Under the pieces are notes generated by a model. That model did no database searches. It was not told the DNA's origin and saw only the letters and a program-made list of their open reading frames with translations. DNA of 64,000 bases from Bacillota bacterium (GTDB lineage Bacteria; Bacillota; Desulfotomaculia; Desulfotomaculales; Pelotomaculaceae): NCBI GenBank assembly GCA_035369845.1, contig DAOOVD010000003.1, positions 2,244-66,243 of the forward strand, given 5' to 3'. The position numbers and the translations under genes were made by a program. Of this stretch, positions 31,753-59,250 are shown one piece after another. Every line of letters begins with the position of its first letter. Positions within the stretch are counted from its first letter, which is position 1.

Positions 31753-31919
31753 ACACGTAAGACAACCGTAAACGGCAGGAAAGGGCTGAAAAATAAAGAA
31801 CAATAAATATGGATCAATTTCGCCTTGAAACAAGCGGTAAGTGCAGCCGGCGCAAAGCACCAGGAGTAAGCGGTGACAAGGCGCTGACCGGAAAAGTATT
31901 TTGGGGGAGATGCGAACTC

Positions 31920-36384: not shown

Positions 36385-38073
36385 TTACCGCTTCCGCCCG
36401 TCCGGGGGCGGAGACGGTTCAAGTCCTGCCGCCTCCCGCCGCGGGTCGGTCTTGCCGATCAGCCGGGGGCGGCGCAGCATGACCCACCAGGGCGCCCGTA
36501 CGACCACGTCTTTCATGTCGCCGGCGGAGAACGGCGCCACCGGGAACAGGTAGGGATAACCGAACGAGCGCAGGGTGGCCAGGTGCGTCAAAATGGTCAG
36601 CACCCCGCAGATCACCCCGTAGAGCCCCAGAGTGCCCGCCAGCACCATCATCGGAAACCTCAAGAAGCGTATGGAGACGCTGGCGGAATAATAAAAAGTA
36701 AAGGAGGCGATACCCGTCAGGGCAACCACAATCACCGTCGAGGCGGCGATAATCCCGGCCCGCACGGCAGCCTCCCCGATGATCAGCGCGCCCACGATGC
36801 TGACTGCCTGGCCCACCTGCCGCGGCAGGCGGATACCGGCCTCCCGCAGGATCTCAAAGGCAAATTCCATGACAACCGCTTCAACGAGGGCCGGGAAGGG
36901 CACCGCCTCCCGCTGGGCGGCCAGGCTCAGCAGCAGGGCCGTGGGCAGCATCTCCTGGTGGTAGGTCACTATGGCTATATACAGTGAAGGGCCCAAAAGG
37001 GAGATGACCAGGGAAATCAGGCGGACCAACCTTACCGCCGAACTGTACACCGACCGCTCGTAGTAGTCCTCCGGATTTTGTATGGCTTCCACAAAAAACA
37101 CCGGTACGGTCAGCGCGTAGGGTGTGCCGTCCATCAGTATGGCCGCCCTCCCTTCCAGCAACTGCGCCGCCACCTTGTCCGGCCGTTCGGTGTGGTAAAC
37201 GGTGCTGAAAGGGCTCCAGGGACTGTCCTCGATCAGTTCCTCGATGTAGCCGGTTTCCAGCACGGCGTCGATTTCAATCCTGCCCAGCCTCTCCTTGACC
37301 TCGGCAACCAGCTTGTCGTTGACGATACCTTTGATATATACCACCGCCACGTCGGTTTTGGTCACCCGCCCCAGCTTCATCATCTCAATCTTCAGGTCGG
37401 GACTCTTGATCTTGCGGCGGAGCAGGGACAAATTCACCCGGATTGTTTCGACAAACGCTTCACGGGGACCCCGCACCGCCAGTTCCGTCTGGGATTCCTC
37501 CACATTCCGGCCTTCCCAGCCCCTGGAGGCGTTGATGATGGCGCTCGCGTGCCCGTCCACAAACAAAACGGTGTCCCCTGACAAAACGGCGTCTACGGCT
37601 TTACCGAGATTGTTTGTCTCCTCGATGTGTTGAATGGGCAAAAGCTTCTTTATCGTTGTCAAAGCCCGTGCCCTGGTGAGTTCCTCGTCCTGCTCCACCA
37701 GCGGGGCGTCCAGCATCAGGCTGCGCATGATCTGGGCGGTGATCTGTATTTTGTCAGCCATGCCGTCCATGTAAACTATAGCCAGTTTGATCCGCTCGTC
37801 CCCGGCGAAATAAAACTCCCTGAAGATCGCGTCGCTGCATTCGCTGAAAACCGTTTTCATCATCAGCAAATTGATCTCCAGATCCGGGCTCAATTCCCGG
37901 TCTTGGATCCCGCGGCCCGCAAATACGTCGCCTTCCCGGTGCTCCCCGGGGCCGCCGCCCTGCCCGGCAGCCGGCTTTCTGCGTCCTGGCAGGCCGGCTT
38001 TGAAGGGTTTTATAAACCTTACCAATCGAAGCGCTCCTCCAAAAGAAACAGATCTCTTAGATTTTTCCACCAC
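36385..38073 (-). CDS. Spore germination receptor A subunit (GerAA family)
   Basis: INLLMMKTVFSECSDAIFREF..VVYIKGIVNDKLV..ETGYIEELIED..RPDKVAAQLLEGRAAILMDGTP. The true start may be internal. Confidence 0.8.
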   Translation of the reverse strand: MVEKSKRSVSFGGALRLVRFIKPFKAGLPGRRKPAAGQGGGPGEHREGDVFAGRGIQDRELSPDLEINLLMMKTVFSECSDAIFREFYFAGDERIKLAIVYMDGMADKIQITAQIMRSLMLDAPLVEQDEELTRARALTTIKKLLPIQHIEETNNLGKAVDAVLSGDTVLFVDGHASAIINASRGWEGRNVEESQTELAVRGPREAFVETIRVNLSLLRRKIKSPDLKIEMMKLGRVTKTDVAVVYIKGIVNDKLVAEVKERLGRIEIDAVLETGYIEELIEDSPWSPFSTVYHTERPDKVAAQLLEGRAAILMDGTPYALTVPVFFVEAIQNPEDYYERSVYSSAVRLVRLISLVISLLGPSLYIAIVTYHQEMLPTALLLSLAAQREAVPFPALVEAVVMEFAFEILREAGIRLPRQVGQAVSIVGALIIGEAAVRAGIIAASTVIVVALTGIASFTFYYSASVSIRFLRFPMMVLAGTLGLYGVICGVLTILTHLATLRSFGYPYLFPVAPFSAGDMKDVVVRAPWWVMLRRPRLIGKTDPRREAAGLEPSPPPDGRKR

Positions 38074-38134
38074 GCTTATTATTTCTCTGTTTTAACACGA
38101 TATACCCGCCGGGAACAATCTTGTGCGCTGCAAG

Positions 38135-38170
38135 AAAAAACCCGTATCAAGACCTTCCTTTTGATACGGG
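38135..38170 (-). terminator. Intrinsic terminator hairpin with U-tract (the distal copy of a duplicated hairpin downstream of leuS)
   Basis: Minus strand reads CCCGTATCAAA-AGGAAGGT-CTTGATACGGG followed by TTTTTT. Confidence 0.65.
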
Positions 38171-38173
38171 TGA

Positions 38174-38535
38174 GGTTGTTGACAAAGTAGAACCTTGAGG
38201 TTGAAACGCTCGCTCAGATGCTTAGCGTCAAGTGAGCCAGGGCAGTGCCCTGTCACCGCTCACTCCCGGTGCTTCGCGCCGGCGGCACTTGCTGCTTGCA
38301 TCGGGCGAAACCGGGCGCCTTTAACTCGCCTTCCCGGCTCGGTTCAGGCTGGCGCGGACGTCCGTGTCCGCGCCCCCGGTTTCGCAGCCTCGCTGCGCAA
38401 AGTGCTGCTGCGGCGCTTTCGCAATGTCGTTCGCCGCTGACAAAGGCGCTGCCCGCCCGCGCGGGGTTGCAGATTGTGCTGCGCAATATCGCTCGCTTCC
38501 TTCAACCCCAAGGTCCCGAACAGTTTGTCGGCAGT
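38174..38535. repeat. MITE-like fold-back element, copy 1 (362 bp, GC-rich, imperfect terminal inverted repeats)
   Basis: Left end is ggttgttgacaaagtagaaccttgaggttgaaacgctcgc. The right end reverse-complements to gccgacaaactgttcgggaccttggggttgaaggaagcgagc. The core tcggttcaggctggcgcggacgtccgtgtccgc is shared with copy 2. Confidence 0.65.
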
Positions 38536-38539
38536 CCGA

Positions 38540-38569
38540 CCCGTATCAAGGACTTGCTCTTGATACGGG
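38540..38569. repeat. Second copy of the leuS-downstream hairpin (no U-tract)
   Basis: cccgtatcaag-gacttgct-cttgatacggg has the same stem as 38141-38170 with a different loop. Confidence 0.8.
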
Positions 38570-38694
38570 TCAAACCTTTCATCTCCGGACTTTAAATGTC
38601 TAAAGCGTTTTTTCTGACTTGCGGATTTAATAACAACCTGAGGAACATCCTGTGTCCGGTCGATCACTTTCCTCCGGGCAGAAGACCGTCGGCA

Positions 38695-41196
38695 TCATTT
38701 CACCACAATATTTACCAGCTTGCCCGGAACCGCAATCGTTTTCACTATCTTTTTCCCCTCGGTAAGCCGGATCACCCTCGGTTCCTTCATCACCGCCTCC
38801 TGCATCTCCTGCGCCGACAGTCCCGCTTTGACCAGCAACCTGTCGCGGACTCTGCCGTTTATCTGAACCACGATGGTTATCTCGTCCTCCGCTATGGCGT
38901 CGGGATCGCAGGCGGGCCACGGCTGCAGGTGAATGCTTCCGCTGTGGCCGGAGGCTTCCCAGATTTCTTCGGTAATGTGGGGCGCAAAGGGAGCCAGCAG
39001 CAGCAGCATGCTGTCGACCGCCTCCCGCAAAACGGCCGGGTCGCGGTCGCTTTCGGGAACTTCCCTGAACTGGTAGAGGGCGTTGACCAGTTCCATTATG
39101 GCGCTGATGGCGGTGTTGAAGTTGAAACGGCTGCCTATATCCTCAGTCACTTTCTTGATAGTGCTGTGGGTGATTCTCCGCATCTCCCGGTTTACTCCCA
39201 CCAGATCGCGGGAAATCTTTTCAGGTGCCTTCCGCAGCACATCCACCAGCGGAACAACCAGGCGCCAGACCCTGTTCAGGAAGCGATAGCACCCTTCAAC
39301 ACCCTGGTCGCTCCATTCCAGATCGCGCTCCGGAGGGGCGGCGAAAAGGATGAAAAGTCTGGCGGTGTCTGCGCCGTAGCGGGCAACAATATCCTCGGGG
39401 CTCACCACGTTGCCCCTCGACTTGGACATCTTGGCGCCGTCTTTCAGCACCATGCCCTGTGTCAGAAGATTCGTAAAGGGTTCCCGGCAGTTGACCAGAT
39501 TGAGATCGTAAAGAACCTTGGTGAAGAACCGGGAATACAGCAGGTGCAGTATGGCGTGCTCCACGCCCCCGATGTACTGGTCCACAGGCATCCAGTAACC
39601 GGCCTTGTTCATGTCCCAGGGCCCCTCTTTTTCACGGGGGCTGGTATACCTGTAATAATACCAGGAAGAGCACATGAACGTGTCCATGGTGTCCGTTTCC
39701 GCCTTGCCGGGCCCGCCGCAGCTCGGGCAGACGGTGTGGACGAATTCCGGACATTCCGCGAGAGGCGAGCGTCCCGTCGGCTTAAATTCCACATCCATGG
39801 GGAGCAGCACCGGCAAGTCGGATTCCGGAACCGGTACGATGCCGCAGTTGTCGCAGTACACAATGGGTATCGGCGCCCCCCAGTAGCGCTGGCGGGAAAT
39901 CAGCCAGTCCCTCAGGCGGTACGTCACCCGGAACCTGCCCTGTCCCCTTTCCTCGAGGTGGGAAGTGATCGCCTTCATGGCCTTCACATTGGGCATGCCG
40001 TTGAAGCGGCCGGAATTGACAAGCACGCCTTCTCCCTCGTAGGCTTCCTGCATGGTGGCGGGATCGAGTCCGGCTCCCGGCGGCTGGATGACGACGCGGA
40101 CCGGGTAGCCGTACTTCCGGGCGAATTCAAAGTCCCGCTGGTCGTGGGCGGGTACTCCCATCACGCAGCCGGTGCCGTACTCCAGCAGCACGTAATTGGC
40201 CACGAGAACGGGCACCCGTTCCCCGGTCAGGGGGTTGATGCAGTACGCCCCGGTCGGCAGGCCGACCTTTTCCGCCTCCGTCGAGGTGCGGTCGATTTCA
40301 CTCAGCTTTCTGACCGACCGGACAAACTCCTTGATTTCTTCCTCCCGGTCGGTGCCGCTGATCAGTTTTTCCACCAGCGGGTGCTCCGGAGCCAGGACCA
40401 TGTAGGTCACGCCGAAAACCGTGTCCGGCCGCGTGGTGTAAACGGTGATCACGTCGTCGGAACCGGCCACCTTAAAATCTATTTCCGCGCCTTCACTGCG
40501 GCCGATCCAGTTTTCCTGCATGATCTTGACCTTCTCGGGCCATCCGTCCAAAAGTTCGAGATCATTCAACAGCCGCTCGGCGTAATCAGTAATTTTGAAA
40601 AACCACTGATCGAGTTCCCGCTTCTCCACCTGGGCCTTGCAGCGCTCGCAGCTCCCGTCTTTCAATACCTGCTCGTTTGCCAGAACGGTGGCGCACCCGG
40701 GGCACCAGTTCACCGCCGCCCGCTTTTTGTAAGCCAGTCCGTTATGAAAAAGTTGCAGAAACAGCCACTCCGTCCAGCGGTAATACTCGTGGTGGCATGT
40801 TGCGATTTCCCTTTTCCAGTCATAGCTGATGCCGAGTTGTTTCAACTGGGCGCGCATGTTGTTTATGTTTTCATAGGTCCAGTCCGCGGGGTGAATGCCG
40901 TGTTTGATGGCGGCGTTTTCAGCCGGAAGACCGAAGGCGTCCCAGCCCATCGGGTGGAGGACGTGATAACCCTGCATGGTCTTGAAGCGGGCCACCACAT
41001 CGCCGATGGAGTAATTTCTGACGTGCCCCATGTGAAGTTTCCCCGAAGGATACGGGAACATCTCAAGGCAATAATACTTGGGACGGTCGGAAAAATCGGG
41101 AACAGCGTAAATGTCGTCCTCCTCCCAGCGGGCTTGCCATTTTTCTTCCAGTTCTTTGAAATCATACCTTTCTTTCATGTTATCGCCCCTTATCAA
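38695..41196 (-). CDS. leuS: Leucine--tRNA ligase
   Basis: 833 aa. [16 protein letters not shown] (HIGH) and KMSKSRGN (KMSKS). Confidence 0.95.
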
Positions 41197-43037: not shown

Positions 43038-43364
43038 AAAAAACCCCCCGCCCCTGTTTATACAGGGACGAGAGGTTGTTTCCCGCGGTACCACCCTTCT
43101 TGGCAAAAAACTTTTGGTGGAGCTGGCGGGGATTGAACCCGCGTCCTCTTCCATGCCAAGGAAGCGCGCTCCCACTGCGCCACAGCCCCATCGTCTGCCC
43201 TCTTTGTCGCGGTAACGGCGCGTCCGGCCTGAAGTAATTTGTTTTTCCTCCAGACAGCTCTAAGGCGAGCTTCAACAGCCTCGCCCGCCGCCTCGCACCC
43301 GTACGGCGGCTCTCTTCAGAGCTGCGCTGTTTACTACTCCTCGTCATTGCCTCGGATTAAACTG
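43038..43364 (-). promoter_or_regulatory. T-box riboswitch leader (Stem I, antiterminator/T-box, terminator) with a tRNA gene embedded in it
   Basis: Read on the minus strand. The Stem I-like region has GCAATGACGAGGAGTAGTA, an AGAGAG bulge and a GGGTGCGA distal loop. T-box core AGGGTGGTACCGCG lies at 43084-43097, with ..CGTCCC antiterminator closure. A 14-bp terminator (CCTCTCGTCCCTGT/ACAGGGGCGGGGGG) plus T6 lies at 43038-43075. Confidence 0.7.
43115..43189 (-). tRNA. tRNA-Ala (anticodon GGC), CCA encoded
   Basis: Hand-folded cloverleaf. Acceptor GGGGCUG/CAGCUCC with G3:U70. D arm GCGC-AGUGGGA-GCGC. Anticodon arm CUUCC-UUGGCAU-GGAAG. T arm GCGGG-UUCAAUC-CCCGC. A73-CCA at the 3' end. Confidence 0.9.
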
Positions 43365-57457: not shown

Positions 57458-57495
57458 AAAAGAATAAATGCGACAGGGGAAACCCCCTGTCGCAT
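57458..57495 (-). terminator. Intrinsic terminator hairpin with U-rich tail (the distal copy of a duplicated hairpin downstream of rodA)
   Basis: Minus strand reads ATGCGACAGGGG-GTTT-CCCCTGTCGCAT followed by TTATTCTTTT. Confidence 0.55.
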
Positions 57496-57754
57496 GATTG
57501 TAGACAAACCCAAACAATACAAAGCGCATGGTGTTGAAACAAGCTGCTCCGTTACGGAGCGTCGTCAGTAAACTAAGCGAAGCTGAGGATGCGAAATTGG
57601 ATGAGCGGACTGGATGTCCGCGAAAGCCTGAACCGAACCAGGACGGTGAGTTGAAGGCGGTCCAATTTCGCCCGTAGCAAGCTGACAGTTTACTAGACGC
57701 GGAGTAGAGGAGCCAAGCGGTTTCAACACCATGAACGACTTTGTCAACAACCAG
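57496..57754. repeat. MITE-like fold-back element, copy 2 (259 bp), inverted relative to copy 1
   Basis: The right end reverse-complements to ggttgttgacaaagtcgttcatggtgttgaaac, and the left end is gattgtagacaaacc..catggtgttgaaac. There are internal paired arms (gcgaaattgga/tccaatttcgc, cagtaaact/agtttactag). The core is homologous to copy 1. Confidence 0.65.
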
Positions 57755-57782
57755 ATGCGACAGGGGAAAACCCCTGCCGCAT
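57755..57782. repeat. Second copy of the rodA-downstream hairpin (no U-tract)
   Basis: atgcgacagggg-aaaa-cccctgccgcat is nearly identical to 57468-57495. Confidence 0.8.
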
Positions 57783-57851: not shown

Positions 57852-59012
57852 TTAAAATAAGATTTTCTGACGCCTGACGTTAATATTGAGCAGCAGCCCG
57901 AGAGCGGCCAGGTTGGCTATCATGCTGCTGCCTCCGTAACTGAACATGGGCAGCGGTATGCCTGTCACCGGCATAATCCCCATTGTCATTCCCACGTTGA
58001 CCAGAATGTGAAACGTAATCATCGCAACAACACCGGCAGACACCAGGTAGCCGAAATGGTCTTTTGCATTAATGGCGATGAAGATGCAGCGGTATATCAG
58101 AACGAAATAGAGAAACAGCAGCAGAGCCGCCCCGATGAAGCCCCATTCCTCCCCGACGACTGAAAAGATAAAGTCGGTCTCCTGAATGGGAAGGAAGTCG
58201 CCGTGCGTCTGGCTGCCCTGGAACAAACCGCGCCCGAAGAACCCGCCCTGGCCGATGGCAATCTGCGACTGGATTATGTGATAACCGTCTCCGTGCCAGT
58301 CCTTCCAGGGGTTGATAAAGGTTATCAAACGCTTTAGCTGGTAGTCTTTTAAAGGAATCCAGAGATTGAAAGCAGTGTGTGCCTTAAACCAGAAGTGGGC
58401 CCAAACCCACAGCGAAGCCAGGGAGAGGCCGCCGGAAATCAACCCGGCCAGCAGCGCAGGCCGCGCTCCCGCGGCAAACAACATTCCGAACATGATCGCC
58501 ATAAAAACGAGCGACGTTCCCAAATCGGGCTGTTTTAACACAAAAATGGTGGGCACGCCGATAAATGCAAAAGCGGGGAGCAGATCTCTCAGCCGTTTCA
58601 GTTTCCCTTCCCGTTTAGTCAGGAAGGCGGCGAAGCAAATGATGGTAATTATTTTGGAAAACTCGGAGGGCTGAAACCTGAAGAAACCTATGCCGATCCA
58701 GCGCGTAGCCCCCAGGGCGGACTGGCCCATGAAAATAACTGCCGCCAGCATGACCAGGTTTAGAATATACAGGAGCTTCATATGCTTGGCCAGGTCTTCG
58801 TATTGAATGAAGAGCATAAATACCATGACGCACAGGCCCAGCAGAATATTGATCACCTGTTTTTCAACGTGATAAAGCTGGTTGCCGTACTCTATCAAAT
58901 CGGACTCCCTGGTGGCGCTGTAGATGACAATGATGCTGAACAGGATTATCATCGCCACCGTCAACAGCAGGGTATGGTCCAGCTTTCTTAAAACTCTGCT
59001 TTGCCTGAACAA
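57852..59012 (-). CDS. rodA: SEDS-family peptidoglycan polymerase RodA
   Basis: 386-aa polytopic protein with DFIFSVVGEEWGFIG and PLPMFSYGGSS. TTG start. Its position after minE is as expected. Confidence 0.85.
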   Translation of the reverse strand: MFRQSRVLRKLDHTLLLTVAMIILFSIIVIYSATRESDLIEYGNQLYHVEKQVINILLGLCVMVFMLFIQYEDLAKHMKLLYILNLVMLAAVIFMGQSALGATRWIGIGFFRFQPSEFSKIITIICFAAFLTKREGKLKRLRDLLPAFAFIGVPTIFVLKQPDLGTSLVFMAIMFGMLFAAGARPALLAGLISGGLSLASLWVWAHFWFKAHTAFNLWIPLKDYQLKRLITFINPWKDWHGDGYHIIQSQIAIGQGGFFGRGLFQGSQTHGDFLPIQETDFIFSVVGEEWGFIGAALLLFLYFVLIYRCIFIAINAKDHFGYLVSAGVVAMITFHILVNVGMTMGIMPVTGIPLPMFSYGGSSMIANLAALGLLLNINVRRQKILF

Positions 59013-59063
59013 TATCGCTCGCTTCCTTTAAGCCTCAGGGGCCCGGACAGTTTGTCAACAGCC
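59011..59063. repeat. Solo copy of the MITE end sequence, forming the rodA 5' UTR/RBS
   Basis: aatatcgctcgcttcctttaagcctcaggggcccggacagtttgtcaacagcc compared with 38484-38535 aatatcgctcgcttccttcaaccccaaggtcccgaacagtttgtcggcagtc. Confidence 0.7.
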
Positions 59064-59250
59064 TGACGTTATAATTATATTATAACTGATTGACAAAAAC
59101 AAATTTAAAACCCTGGTATTACCGGCTTCAAAGCTTGCCGGAGCAGTCCCTTTCGCCGACGAAGCGAATAAAAAAGCCCGCTTTGGAGTTAACGGGCCCG
59201 TACAAGTTATCCGACCTGTTGCCTTTAAAAAATTCTTCAGTATTATTTTC

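Follow-up and report, generated by a model that had tools for sequence, protein, structure and literature searches.

Why does the terminator hairpin of leuS occur twice in this genome, on either side of a fold-back sequence, and what placed that sequence there? The window (the whole 64,000-nt stretch of DNA that was analysed) encodes leuS (38695-41196) and a downstream gerA-like gene (36385-38073), both on the minus strand. Between them the hairpin ACCCGTATCAAG-N8-(C/T)TTGATACGGGT, as read from the sequence, is present twice, in 32-bp copies that include an outer A/T pair and are identical at 28 of 32 positions (Table 1). The initial annotation had described a duplicated leuS hairpin flanking a fold-back element, with the U-tract only behind the leuS-distal copy on the minus strand. 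Both observations are confirmed, the U-tract being a TTTTTT run, and the 362 bp given for the sequence between the copies is corrected to 367 bp. Inspection of relatives, which the same annotation had proposed, identified a single hairpin behind leuS, unrelated in sequence, in the nearest genomes (76-80% LeuS identity, outside the genus), with no pre-existing pair. The LeuS of the window genome is 76% identical to that of BRH_c4 MAGs, and the host is a relative of Peptococcaceae. Upstream of leuS, on the minus strand, there is also a T-box leader (RF00230, 114.5 bits; 43061-43356) in which a tRNA match is nested (RF00005, 67.7 bits; 43118-43189).

Table 1 Features of the two element loci, with positions counted from the first nucleotide of the window
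Feature	Position	Strand	Remarks
leuS intrinsic terminator T-tract	38134..38139	-	now only behind the distal hairpin copy; read from the sequence
Distal leuS terminator hairpin copy	38140..38171	-	abuts the 3' end (RNA sense) of the element; 28/32 identical to the other copy
IS1182-type MITE, 367 bp	38172..38538	-	TwoAYGGAY sense on minus; composite
IRL-type terminal inverted repeat GAGGTTGTTGACAAA(GT)	38172..38186	+	aligned with IS1182-family left ends (CAGACTGTAGACAAAGT)
TwoAYGGAY RNA motif, leuS locus	38269..38423	-	RF01731, 45.5 bits (gathering score 43)
IRR-type terminal inverted repeat CGGACTGCCGACAAA(C)	38524..38538	-	aligned with IS1182-family right ends (CAGACCGTAGACAAAC)
leuS-proximal terminator hairpin copy	38539..38570	-	without U-tract; 5' end of the element follows directly
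Distal rodA terminator hairpin copy	57468..57495	-	followed by TTATTCTTTT on the minus strand
IS1182-type MITE, 259 bp, short subfamily	57496..57754	+	TwoAYGGAY sense on plus, antisense to rodA
TwoAYGGAY RNA motif, rodA locus	57552..57707	+	RF01731, 43.7 bits
rodA-proximal terminator hairpin copy	57755..57782	-	without U-tract
Solo truncated IRR-type end (CAGGCTGTTGACAAACTGTCCGGG...), third copy	59008..59065	-	abuts the AT-rich palindrome GTTATAATTATATTATAAC at the rodA start

A second element, reported at the same coordinates in the initial annotation together with a different duplicated hairpin, is located between rodA (57852-59012, minus strand) and a gene encoding an M23 peptidase. Here the duplicated sequence is the rodA hairpin ATGCGACAGGGG-N4-CCCCTG(T/C)CGCAT (26 of 28 positions identical), and only the rodA-distal copy has a T-rich tail. 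The ends and cores of the two elements are homologous when aligned in opposite orientation. Both form much more stable folds than shuffled controls do (z = -9.3 at leuS and -12.3 at rodA), and their only ORFs look spurious, with no transposase gene among them. The leuS element is composite, with short-subfamily outer arms around a long-core ('type 2') unit. The third, solo end in the window extends into the region annotated as the start of rodA, whose start codon or promoter may thus be part of transposon-derived sequence. A fragment of approximately 70 bp (31818-31889) corresponds to the 3' half of a long-core element (...GAGTAAGCGGTGACAAGGCGCTG) and has no recognisable termini.

Comparison with covariance models identifies the core of both elements as the TwoAYGGAY motif (RF01731; Weinberg et al. 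2010, PMC2864571; Minerva preprint, bioRxiv 10.64898/2026.09.22.753630), with scores just above the gathering score; the motif has two hairpins with AYGGAY loops on one basal stem. The initial annotation had correctly recognised the central fold-back hairpin, which is the first AYGGAY hairpin (GCGCGGAC-ACGGAC-GUCCGCGC at leuS), and had missed its Rfam identity. The genome of the window (2.63 Mb in 103 contigs) contains 26 RF01731 matches, and other copies reach 57.5 bits. Like TwoAYGGAY, the window elements are thus multi-copy, and they have the elongated basal stem seen in Bacillota copies. Among 23 elements from four genomes, 9 of the 14 predicted pairs show two-sided compensatory changes, and 90.9% of cells hold canonical pairs, compared with 28-45% when the 3' partner is shifted; the core keeps pairing by compensatory change, and the termini are constant in sequence. 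All eight element-rich genomes tested encode csrA, which is compatible with the proposed binding of CsrA by the GGA loops. Two copies in the window genome (C15:16471-16753 and C15:19837-20116) have an extra insert of approximately 40 nt in the first AYGGAY hairpin that forms a hairpin of its own (GGGGACAU...AUGUCCCC), indicating that the core tolerates insertions at its tip.

The match to RF01731, the very stable fold, the compensatory changes and the co-occurrence with CsrA could also be expected of a free-standing, non-mobile TwoAYGGAY small-RNA gene, flanked by terminators, either its own or those of neighbours, that are similar by chance. However, the elements occur in dozens of copies with conserved termini, each locus has a different duplicated hairpin that abuts the element to the base, the same termini bound transposase genes, and an empty site has a single hairpin, as set out below. 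A small-RNA gene is thus already contradicted as the full explanation, for which we consider it highly improbable, and the idea survives only for the cargo.

BLAST searches of the window genome, proposed in the initial annotation as a copy count, returned more than 100 fragments of the element, and a profile of its ends gave 96 matches at E <= 0.05. Copies read in RNA sense start with CAGACTGnnGACAAAC and finish with TTTGTCAACAACCTC; the genome consensus of the ends is CAGACTGTTGACAAAC, and the ends in the window are CGGACTGCCGACAAAC and GAGGTTGTTGACAAAGT. When all ends are listed, a hairpin directly abuts nearly every one, paired or unpaired, and this hairpin differs between loci, so it is not part of the element. 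At least 16 complete copies in this genome carry a different, locus-specific duplicated hairpin. We also searched for the 40 nt outside each of 91 ends just beyond the partner end (alignment score >= 14), and re-found the flank for 22 of the 91 ends, compared with 1 of 91 in an outward control.

The length of the duplication is 13-33 bp (median 26) and coincides with the stem-loop in 21 complete copies (16 from the window genome and 5 from G012, a complete genome of another genus), and in 19 of the 21 both duplicates are stable hairpins. The loops of the two copies read in the same direction, and these are therefore direct duplications; an inverted copy of the palindrome was considered instead and is ruled out by the loop orientation. 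In one copy (C21:20924-21238) the duplicated 13 bp form no hairpin, and one copy in G030, a genome of another family, has a duplication of only 9 bp inside a hairpin loop; these two exceptions indicate that the stagger does not always run foot to foot. With approximately 100 ends in the genome, the claims of the initial annotation that one family occupies both loci, that each insertion duplicates a locus-specific terminator stem-loop as a whole, and that hairpins or cruciforms are targeted are borne out or, for the last, supported by the footprint.

In some cases the hairpin next to an end is itself part of another, long-core copy. Such nested insertion accounts for the composite element at leuS and for a 116-bp copy without a core (C25:28572-28687). 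A repeated sequence, GGCGTAAGGCGCAGGGCGCAAAAACGAAGGCGGCGCCTTCGTC, also ends in a hairpin and is a recurrent landing site (for instance at C9:18102, C25:28572, C38:2582 and C53:6501); it behaves like a REP-type hairpin and gives nested or adjacent insertions. In another copy (C17:720-1016) the IRL-type end is tandemly triplicated (GAGGTTGTTGACACAGTGCCTT three times), which recalls the tandem left-end duplications of IS1272 (PMC5678879).

The same footprint occurs in other genera. Locus-specific duplicated hairpins flank 5 of 5 complete copies in G012, 7 of 8 copies in G030, and 6 of 7 copies in G319, a genome from a distant Bacillota family. The 15-nt terminus is found 150 times in G030 and 138 times in G319, compared with 9 and 6 matches, respectively, for a control pattern. 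In G029, five copies of TwoAYGGAY are without these ends, and thus the motif is not always carried by a MITE of this type.

The element termini, 5'-CAGACTGnnGACAAA ... TTTGTCnnCAGTCTG-3', correspond to the terminal inverted repeats (TIRs) of the IS1182 family. Annotated members of that family have the left end CAGACTGTAGACAAAGT and the right end CAGACCGTAGACAAAC, and in the MITEs the 5' end (RNA sense) is of IRR type (GACAAAC) and the 3' end of IRL type (GACAAAGT). The IS1182 transposase model NF033551 (NCBIfam) has matches in G319, G029, G241 and G105. In G319, a transposase fragment with a score of 213 bits against this model lies approximately 100 nt downstream of the exact terminus CAGACTGAAGACAAAGTC, and in G029 the sequence CAGAGTGTTGACAAAC comes after the C-terminal half of a transposase of IS1182 type (271 bits). 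In a further genome, G061, a long element with these termini is present in at least three copies. The assembly breaks off at six contig ends, 88-89 nt into this element, and paired contig ends have the same hairpin on both sides; the interior of the element is not in that assembly.

Two side observations concern the long elements. In G061 a diverged long-element end abuts an island of approximately 4 kb (C18:24669-28683) next to ftsK and housekeeping genes of the recA region; its products include a large serine recombinase and two secreted proteins, and it looks unrelated. In G029 two IS1182 copies (C3 and C6; L249/L257, 780-833) have the hairpin AGCCACTCCGTGTAGGAGTGGCT outside the right TIR and different DNA beyond it; a former target hairpin may travel with the IS, or else both copies hit the same repeated hairpin.

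Full-length elements with annotated transposases leave the same footprint. On a Sutcliffiella horikoshii plasmid (NZ_CP082921.1), a gene annotated as 'IS1182 family transposase' is located between CAGCTTGTAGACAAA and CAGACCGTAGACAAA, and a 30-bp hairpin, AAAGCACTTGTCTAAAAAGACAGGTGCTTT, is directly repeated without mismatch on both sides of the IS. The IS1182-family element of Listeria plasmid pLIS32 has the ends CAGACTGTAGACAAA and CAGACTGTAGAAAAA and a perfectly duplicated 21-bp hairpin, and a copy on an Enterococcus faecium plasmid has CAGACTGTAGACAAA at both ends. We built a 500-nt query that joins both flanks of the Listeria IS with a single hairpin, and it matches four other Listeria plasmids at 500 of 500 bases in one piece. 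The IS therefore duplicated the whole hairpin. The initial annotation had called for a search for empty sites; for this full-length relative with the same ends, the empty site has exactly one hairpin.

Based on these comparisons, we conclude that both window elements are non-autonomous IS1182-family MITEs that carry TwoAYGGAY, moved by a transposase supplied in trans, and that their insertion duplicates a whole hairpin; we put the probability of this reading at roughly 85%. The data show that the ends place the elements in this family, that insertions leave the footprint in four genera, that full-length ISs leave it as well, and that empty sites have one hairpin. The window family has IS1182-type TIRs, is short and multi-copy without a transposase gene, and uses hairpin targets independently of their sequence. 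That an IS1182-family transposase mobilised the MITEs has comparative support, as full-length ISs share both the TIR and the footprint, and this step is thus probable on the basis of sequence comparison.

The window genome itself has no match to NF033551, and thus no cognate IS1182 transposase by this model. No second copy of any flank hairpin was identified within 8 kb inward of the unpaired ends in this genome, and it has no long element with the same ends within 8 kb. The initial annotation had suggested a search for an autonomous partner with the same ends; none was found in the window genome, and IS1182-family relatives elsewhere have such ends. Almost no multi-copy ORFs or ISs are present in this genome. 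Two TnpB-like ORFs, among the few duplicated ones (IS605 OrfB type, judged from N-terminal sequence only; C12:17534-18565 and C12:28729-29790), have no element ends nearby. The lack of an IS1182 transposase and the diverged hairpin duplicates in the window suggest that the family is old and orphaned here. The missing transposase fits this age and orphaned state and says nothing about where the ends came from. Searches for plasmid or phage carriers of the MITE itself gave no match, and the literature on R178 and other SBW25 repeat families was uninformative for the element.

Long duplications are also documented for the IS1202 family, in which they are 16-28 bp (bioRxiv 10.1101/2022.12.17.520857), and the elements could in principle be MITEs of this or another long-duplication family (IS1634/IS1630-like), with the link to hairpins reflecting merely tolerated insertion sites. 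Like the window elements, IS1202 has unusually long duplications (up to 27-28 bp) and is associated with palindromic sites, namely those of Xer (bioRxiv 10.1101/2022.12.17.520857; PMC10132070). In contrast to the window elements, its ends begin with TGT, its duplications fall into three fixed length classes (5-6, 16-17 or 27-28 bp), its transposase is different, and its duplication lies beside the palindrome, not over it. The termini here begin with CAG, CGG or GAG, the duplication varies continuously over 13-33 bp and tracks the stem-loop, and the transposases beside these termini score best to IS1182 (213 and 271 bits). It is therefore very unlikely that the elements belong to one of these other families.

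The RNA-like core suggests another possible route, in which the TwoAYGGAY transcript is reverse-transcribed with priming at terminators, and the family spreads via an RNA intermediate. We read 22 copies by eye, and RNA sense agrees with the direction of the terminator in 12, opposes it in 2 (including the rodA element) and is ambiguous in 8 (5 both, 3 unclear); with the ambiguous copies left aside the skew has a two-sided binomial p of approximately 0.013. Both this skew and the conserved fold would fit an RNA intermediate. However, the terminal inverted repeats are identical to those of a DDE transposon, the duplications are direct and bounded by hairpins, no reverse transcriptase is associated with the elements, and full-length DNA transposons leave the same footprint, so that we give spread through RNA hardly any credence.

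Cas1-type integrases have a known preference for cruciforms next to AT-rich DNA. The geometry of CRISPR repeat duplication by Cas1-Cas2 is identical to that seen here, with staggered strand transfer at both borders of an often palindromic unit of approximately 30 bp, which is then duplicated, and the window genome encodes two cas1 genes. Insertion by a Cas1-type integrase (Cas1-Cas2 or a casposase) would thus give a similar product. CRISPR repeat duplication differs in its enzyme and in its fixed repeat sequence. Furthermore, Cas1 is encoded in 29 of 37 TwoAYGGAY-positive genomes versus 166 of 264 negative ones, which is no convincing association; G061 and G044 carry elements without Cas1, and elements with these termini code for a DDE transposase of the IS1182 family. 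We regard a role for Cas1 as extremely improbable.

Returning to the IS1182-type MITEs, the long fold-back tipped by TwoAYGGAY would have replaced the transposase gene, with the TIRs kept. An IS1182-family DDE transposase acting in trans would pick a DNA hairpin or cruciform, usually an intrinsic terminator, and gap repair would then copy the entire stem-loop to both sides of the element. The length of the duplication would be set by the hairpin and not by the enzyme. In DDE chemistry, the 3'-OH ends of the element are joined to 5' phosphates of the target and the gaps are filled. With this ordinary chemistry, the footprint observed here is the outcome in which a whole stem-loop is duplicated. 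It is the duplication outcome of the model of Wan et al., in which a 3'-feet attack on a cruciform removes the stem-loop and a 5'-feet attack duplicates it (PMC5678879, Fig 13 pathway b). The attack at the 5' feet would probably take place on a cruciform and not on hairpins in single strands.

The duplication covers the stem-loop alone, and thus the U-tract stays with the distal copy and the gene-proximal hairpin would no longer act as a terminator. By read-through, the mRNA of the upstream gene should consequently run on into the element. The element would be co-transcribed with that gene and terminated at the regenerated terminator, which is the distal copy.

Targeting of hairpins by the IS1182 family is already known. 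IS1272, its best-studied member, and the composite TnSha1 target terminator hairpins without sequence specificity and delete the hairpin (PMC4923244, PMC5678879). The initial annotation had considered a duplication so long and structured to be atypical of transposases; this does not hold, as such duplications are what DDE transposases of the IS1182 family leave behind, and their targeting of hairpins has been published (PMC4923244, PMC5678879). As in IS1272 and TnSha1 (Furi et al. 2016, PMC4923244; Wan et al. 2017, PMC5678879), the target here is a hairpin or inverted repeat of no particular primary sequence, usually the terminator just downstream of a gene, and structure sets the footprint. 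The DDE ends are of the CAGACTGTAGACAAA type, as in the IS1182 family, where the comparison was with annotated family elements and not with IS1272 itself. Unlike IS1272 and TnSha1, the window elements lack a transposase and have a structured RNA motif instead. Whereas IS1272 and TnSha1 delete part or all of the hairpin, the window elements and the ISs of Listeria and Sutcliffiella duplicate it whole, an outcome that for the IS1182 family had been drawn only as a hypothetical pathway (PMC5678879). The window elements also resemble classical MITEs (Correia/NEMIS, ERIC, RUP, Nezha; PMC3184786) in being short, gene-less, intergenic and moved in trans, with inverted ends and long hairpins. Classical MITEs differ in that their duplications are short and of fixed length (e.g. 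TA or 9 bp), independent of target structure.

TwoAYGGAY is a widespread orphan RNA family whose copy number varies extremely, an expansion recently called 'mobile-element-like' without a mechanism (bioRxiv 10.64898/2026.09.22.753630). Terminators, target duplications and IS1182 ends are absent from the main texts of the two papers on the motif (PMC2864571; bioRxiv 10.64898/2026.09.22.753630), and the main text of the preprint also draws no connection between TwoAYGGAY and a transposase. In the searchable literature we found no mention of Bacillota TwoAYGGAY on IS1182-type MITEs, nor of a systematic duplication of entire stem-loops for which empty sites with one hairpin had been verified. That TwoAYGGAY copies in Bacillota are tied to MITEs of IS1182 type looks new.

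We think it unlikely, though less so than the rival origins discussed above, that the TwoAYGGAY fold is more than cargo. If it is, it may serve in one of two ways. The MITE could be a mobile 3'-UTR module that sits between the stop codon and the regenerated terminator, preferentially in sense orientation. A module with two GGA loops, possibly bound by CsrA, would then be grafted onto host mRNAs, and IS1182-type transposition would rewire post-transcriptional control. Alternatively, the conserved fold-back could be a structured donor substrate that an IS1182-type transposase recognises, in which case the enzyme would read DNA shape at donor and target alike.

The assignment of the window elements to IS1182-type MITEs gives one concrete route for the spread of TwoAYGGAY through Bacillota genomes. 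With the vehicle named, the mobility of the motif becomes testable with a defined transposase and defined ends. The family further provides dozens of natural examples, with clean empty sites, of a whole stem-loop duplication that had until now only been sketched. Pairs of terminator hairpins that bracket a GC-rich fold-back are thus to be read as insertion scars and not as tandem terminators. As the gene-proximal hairpins have no U-tract, the 3' ends of the leuS and rodA transcripts need to be re-examined.
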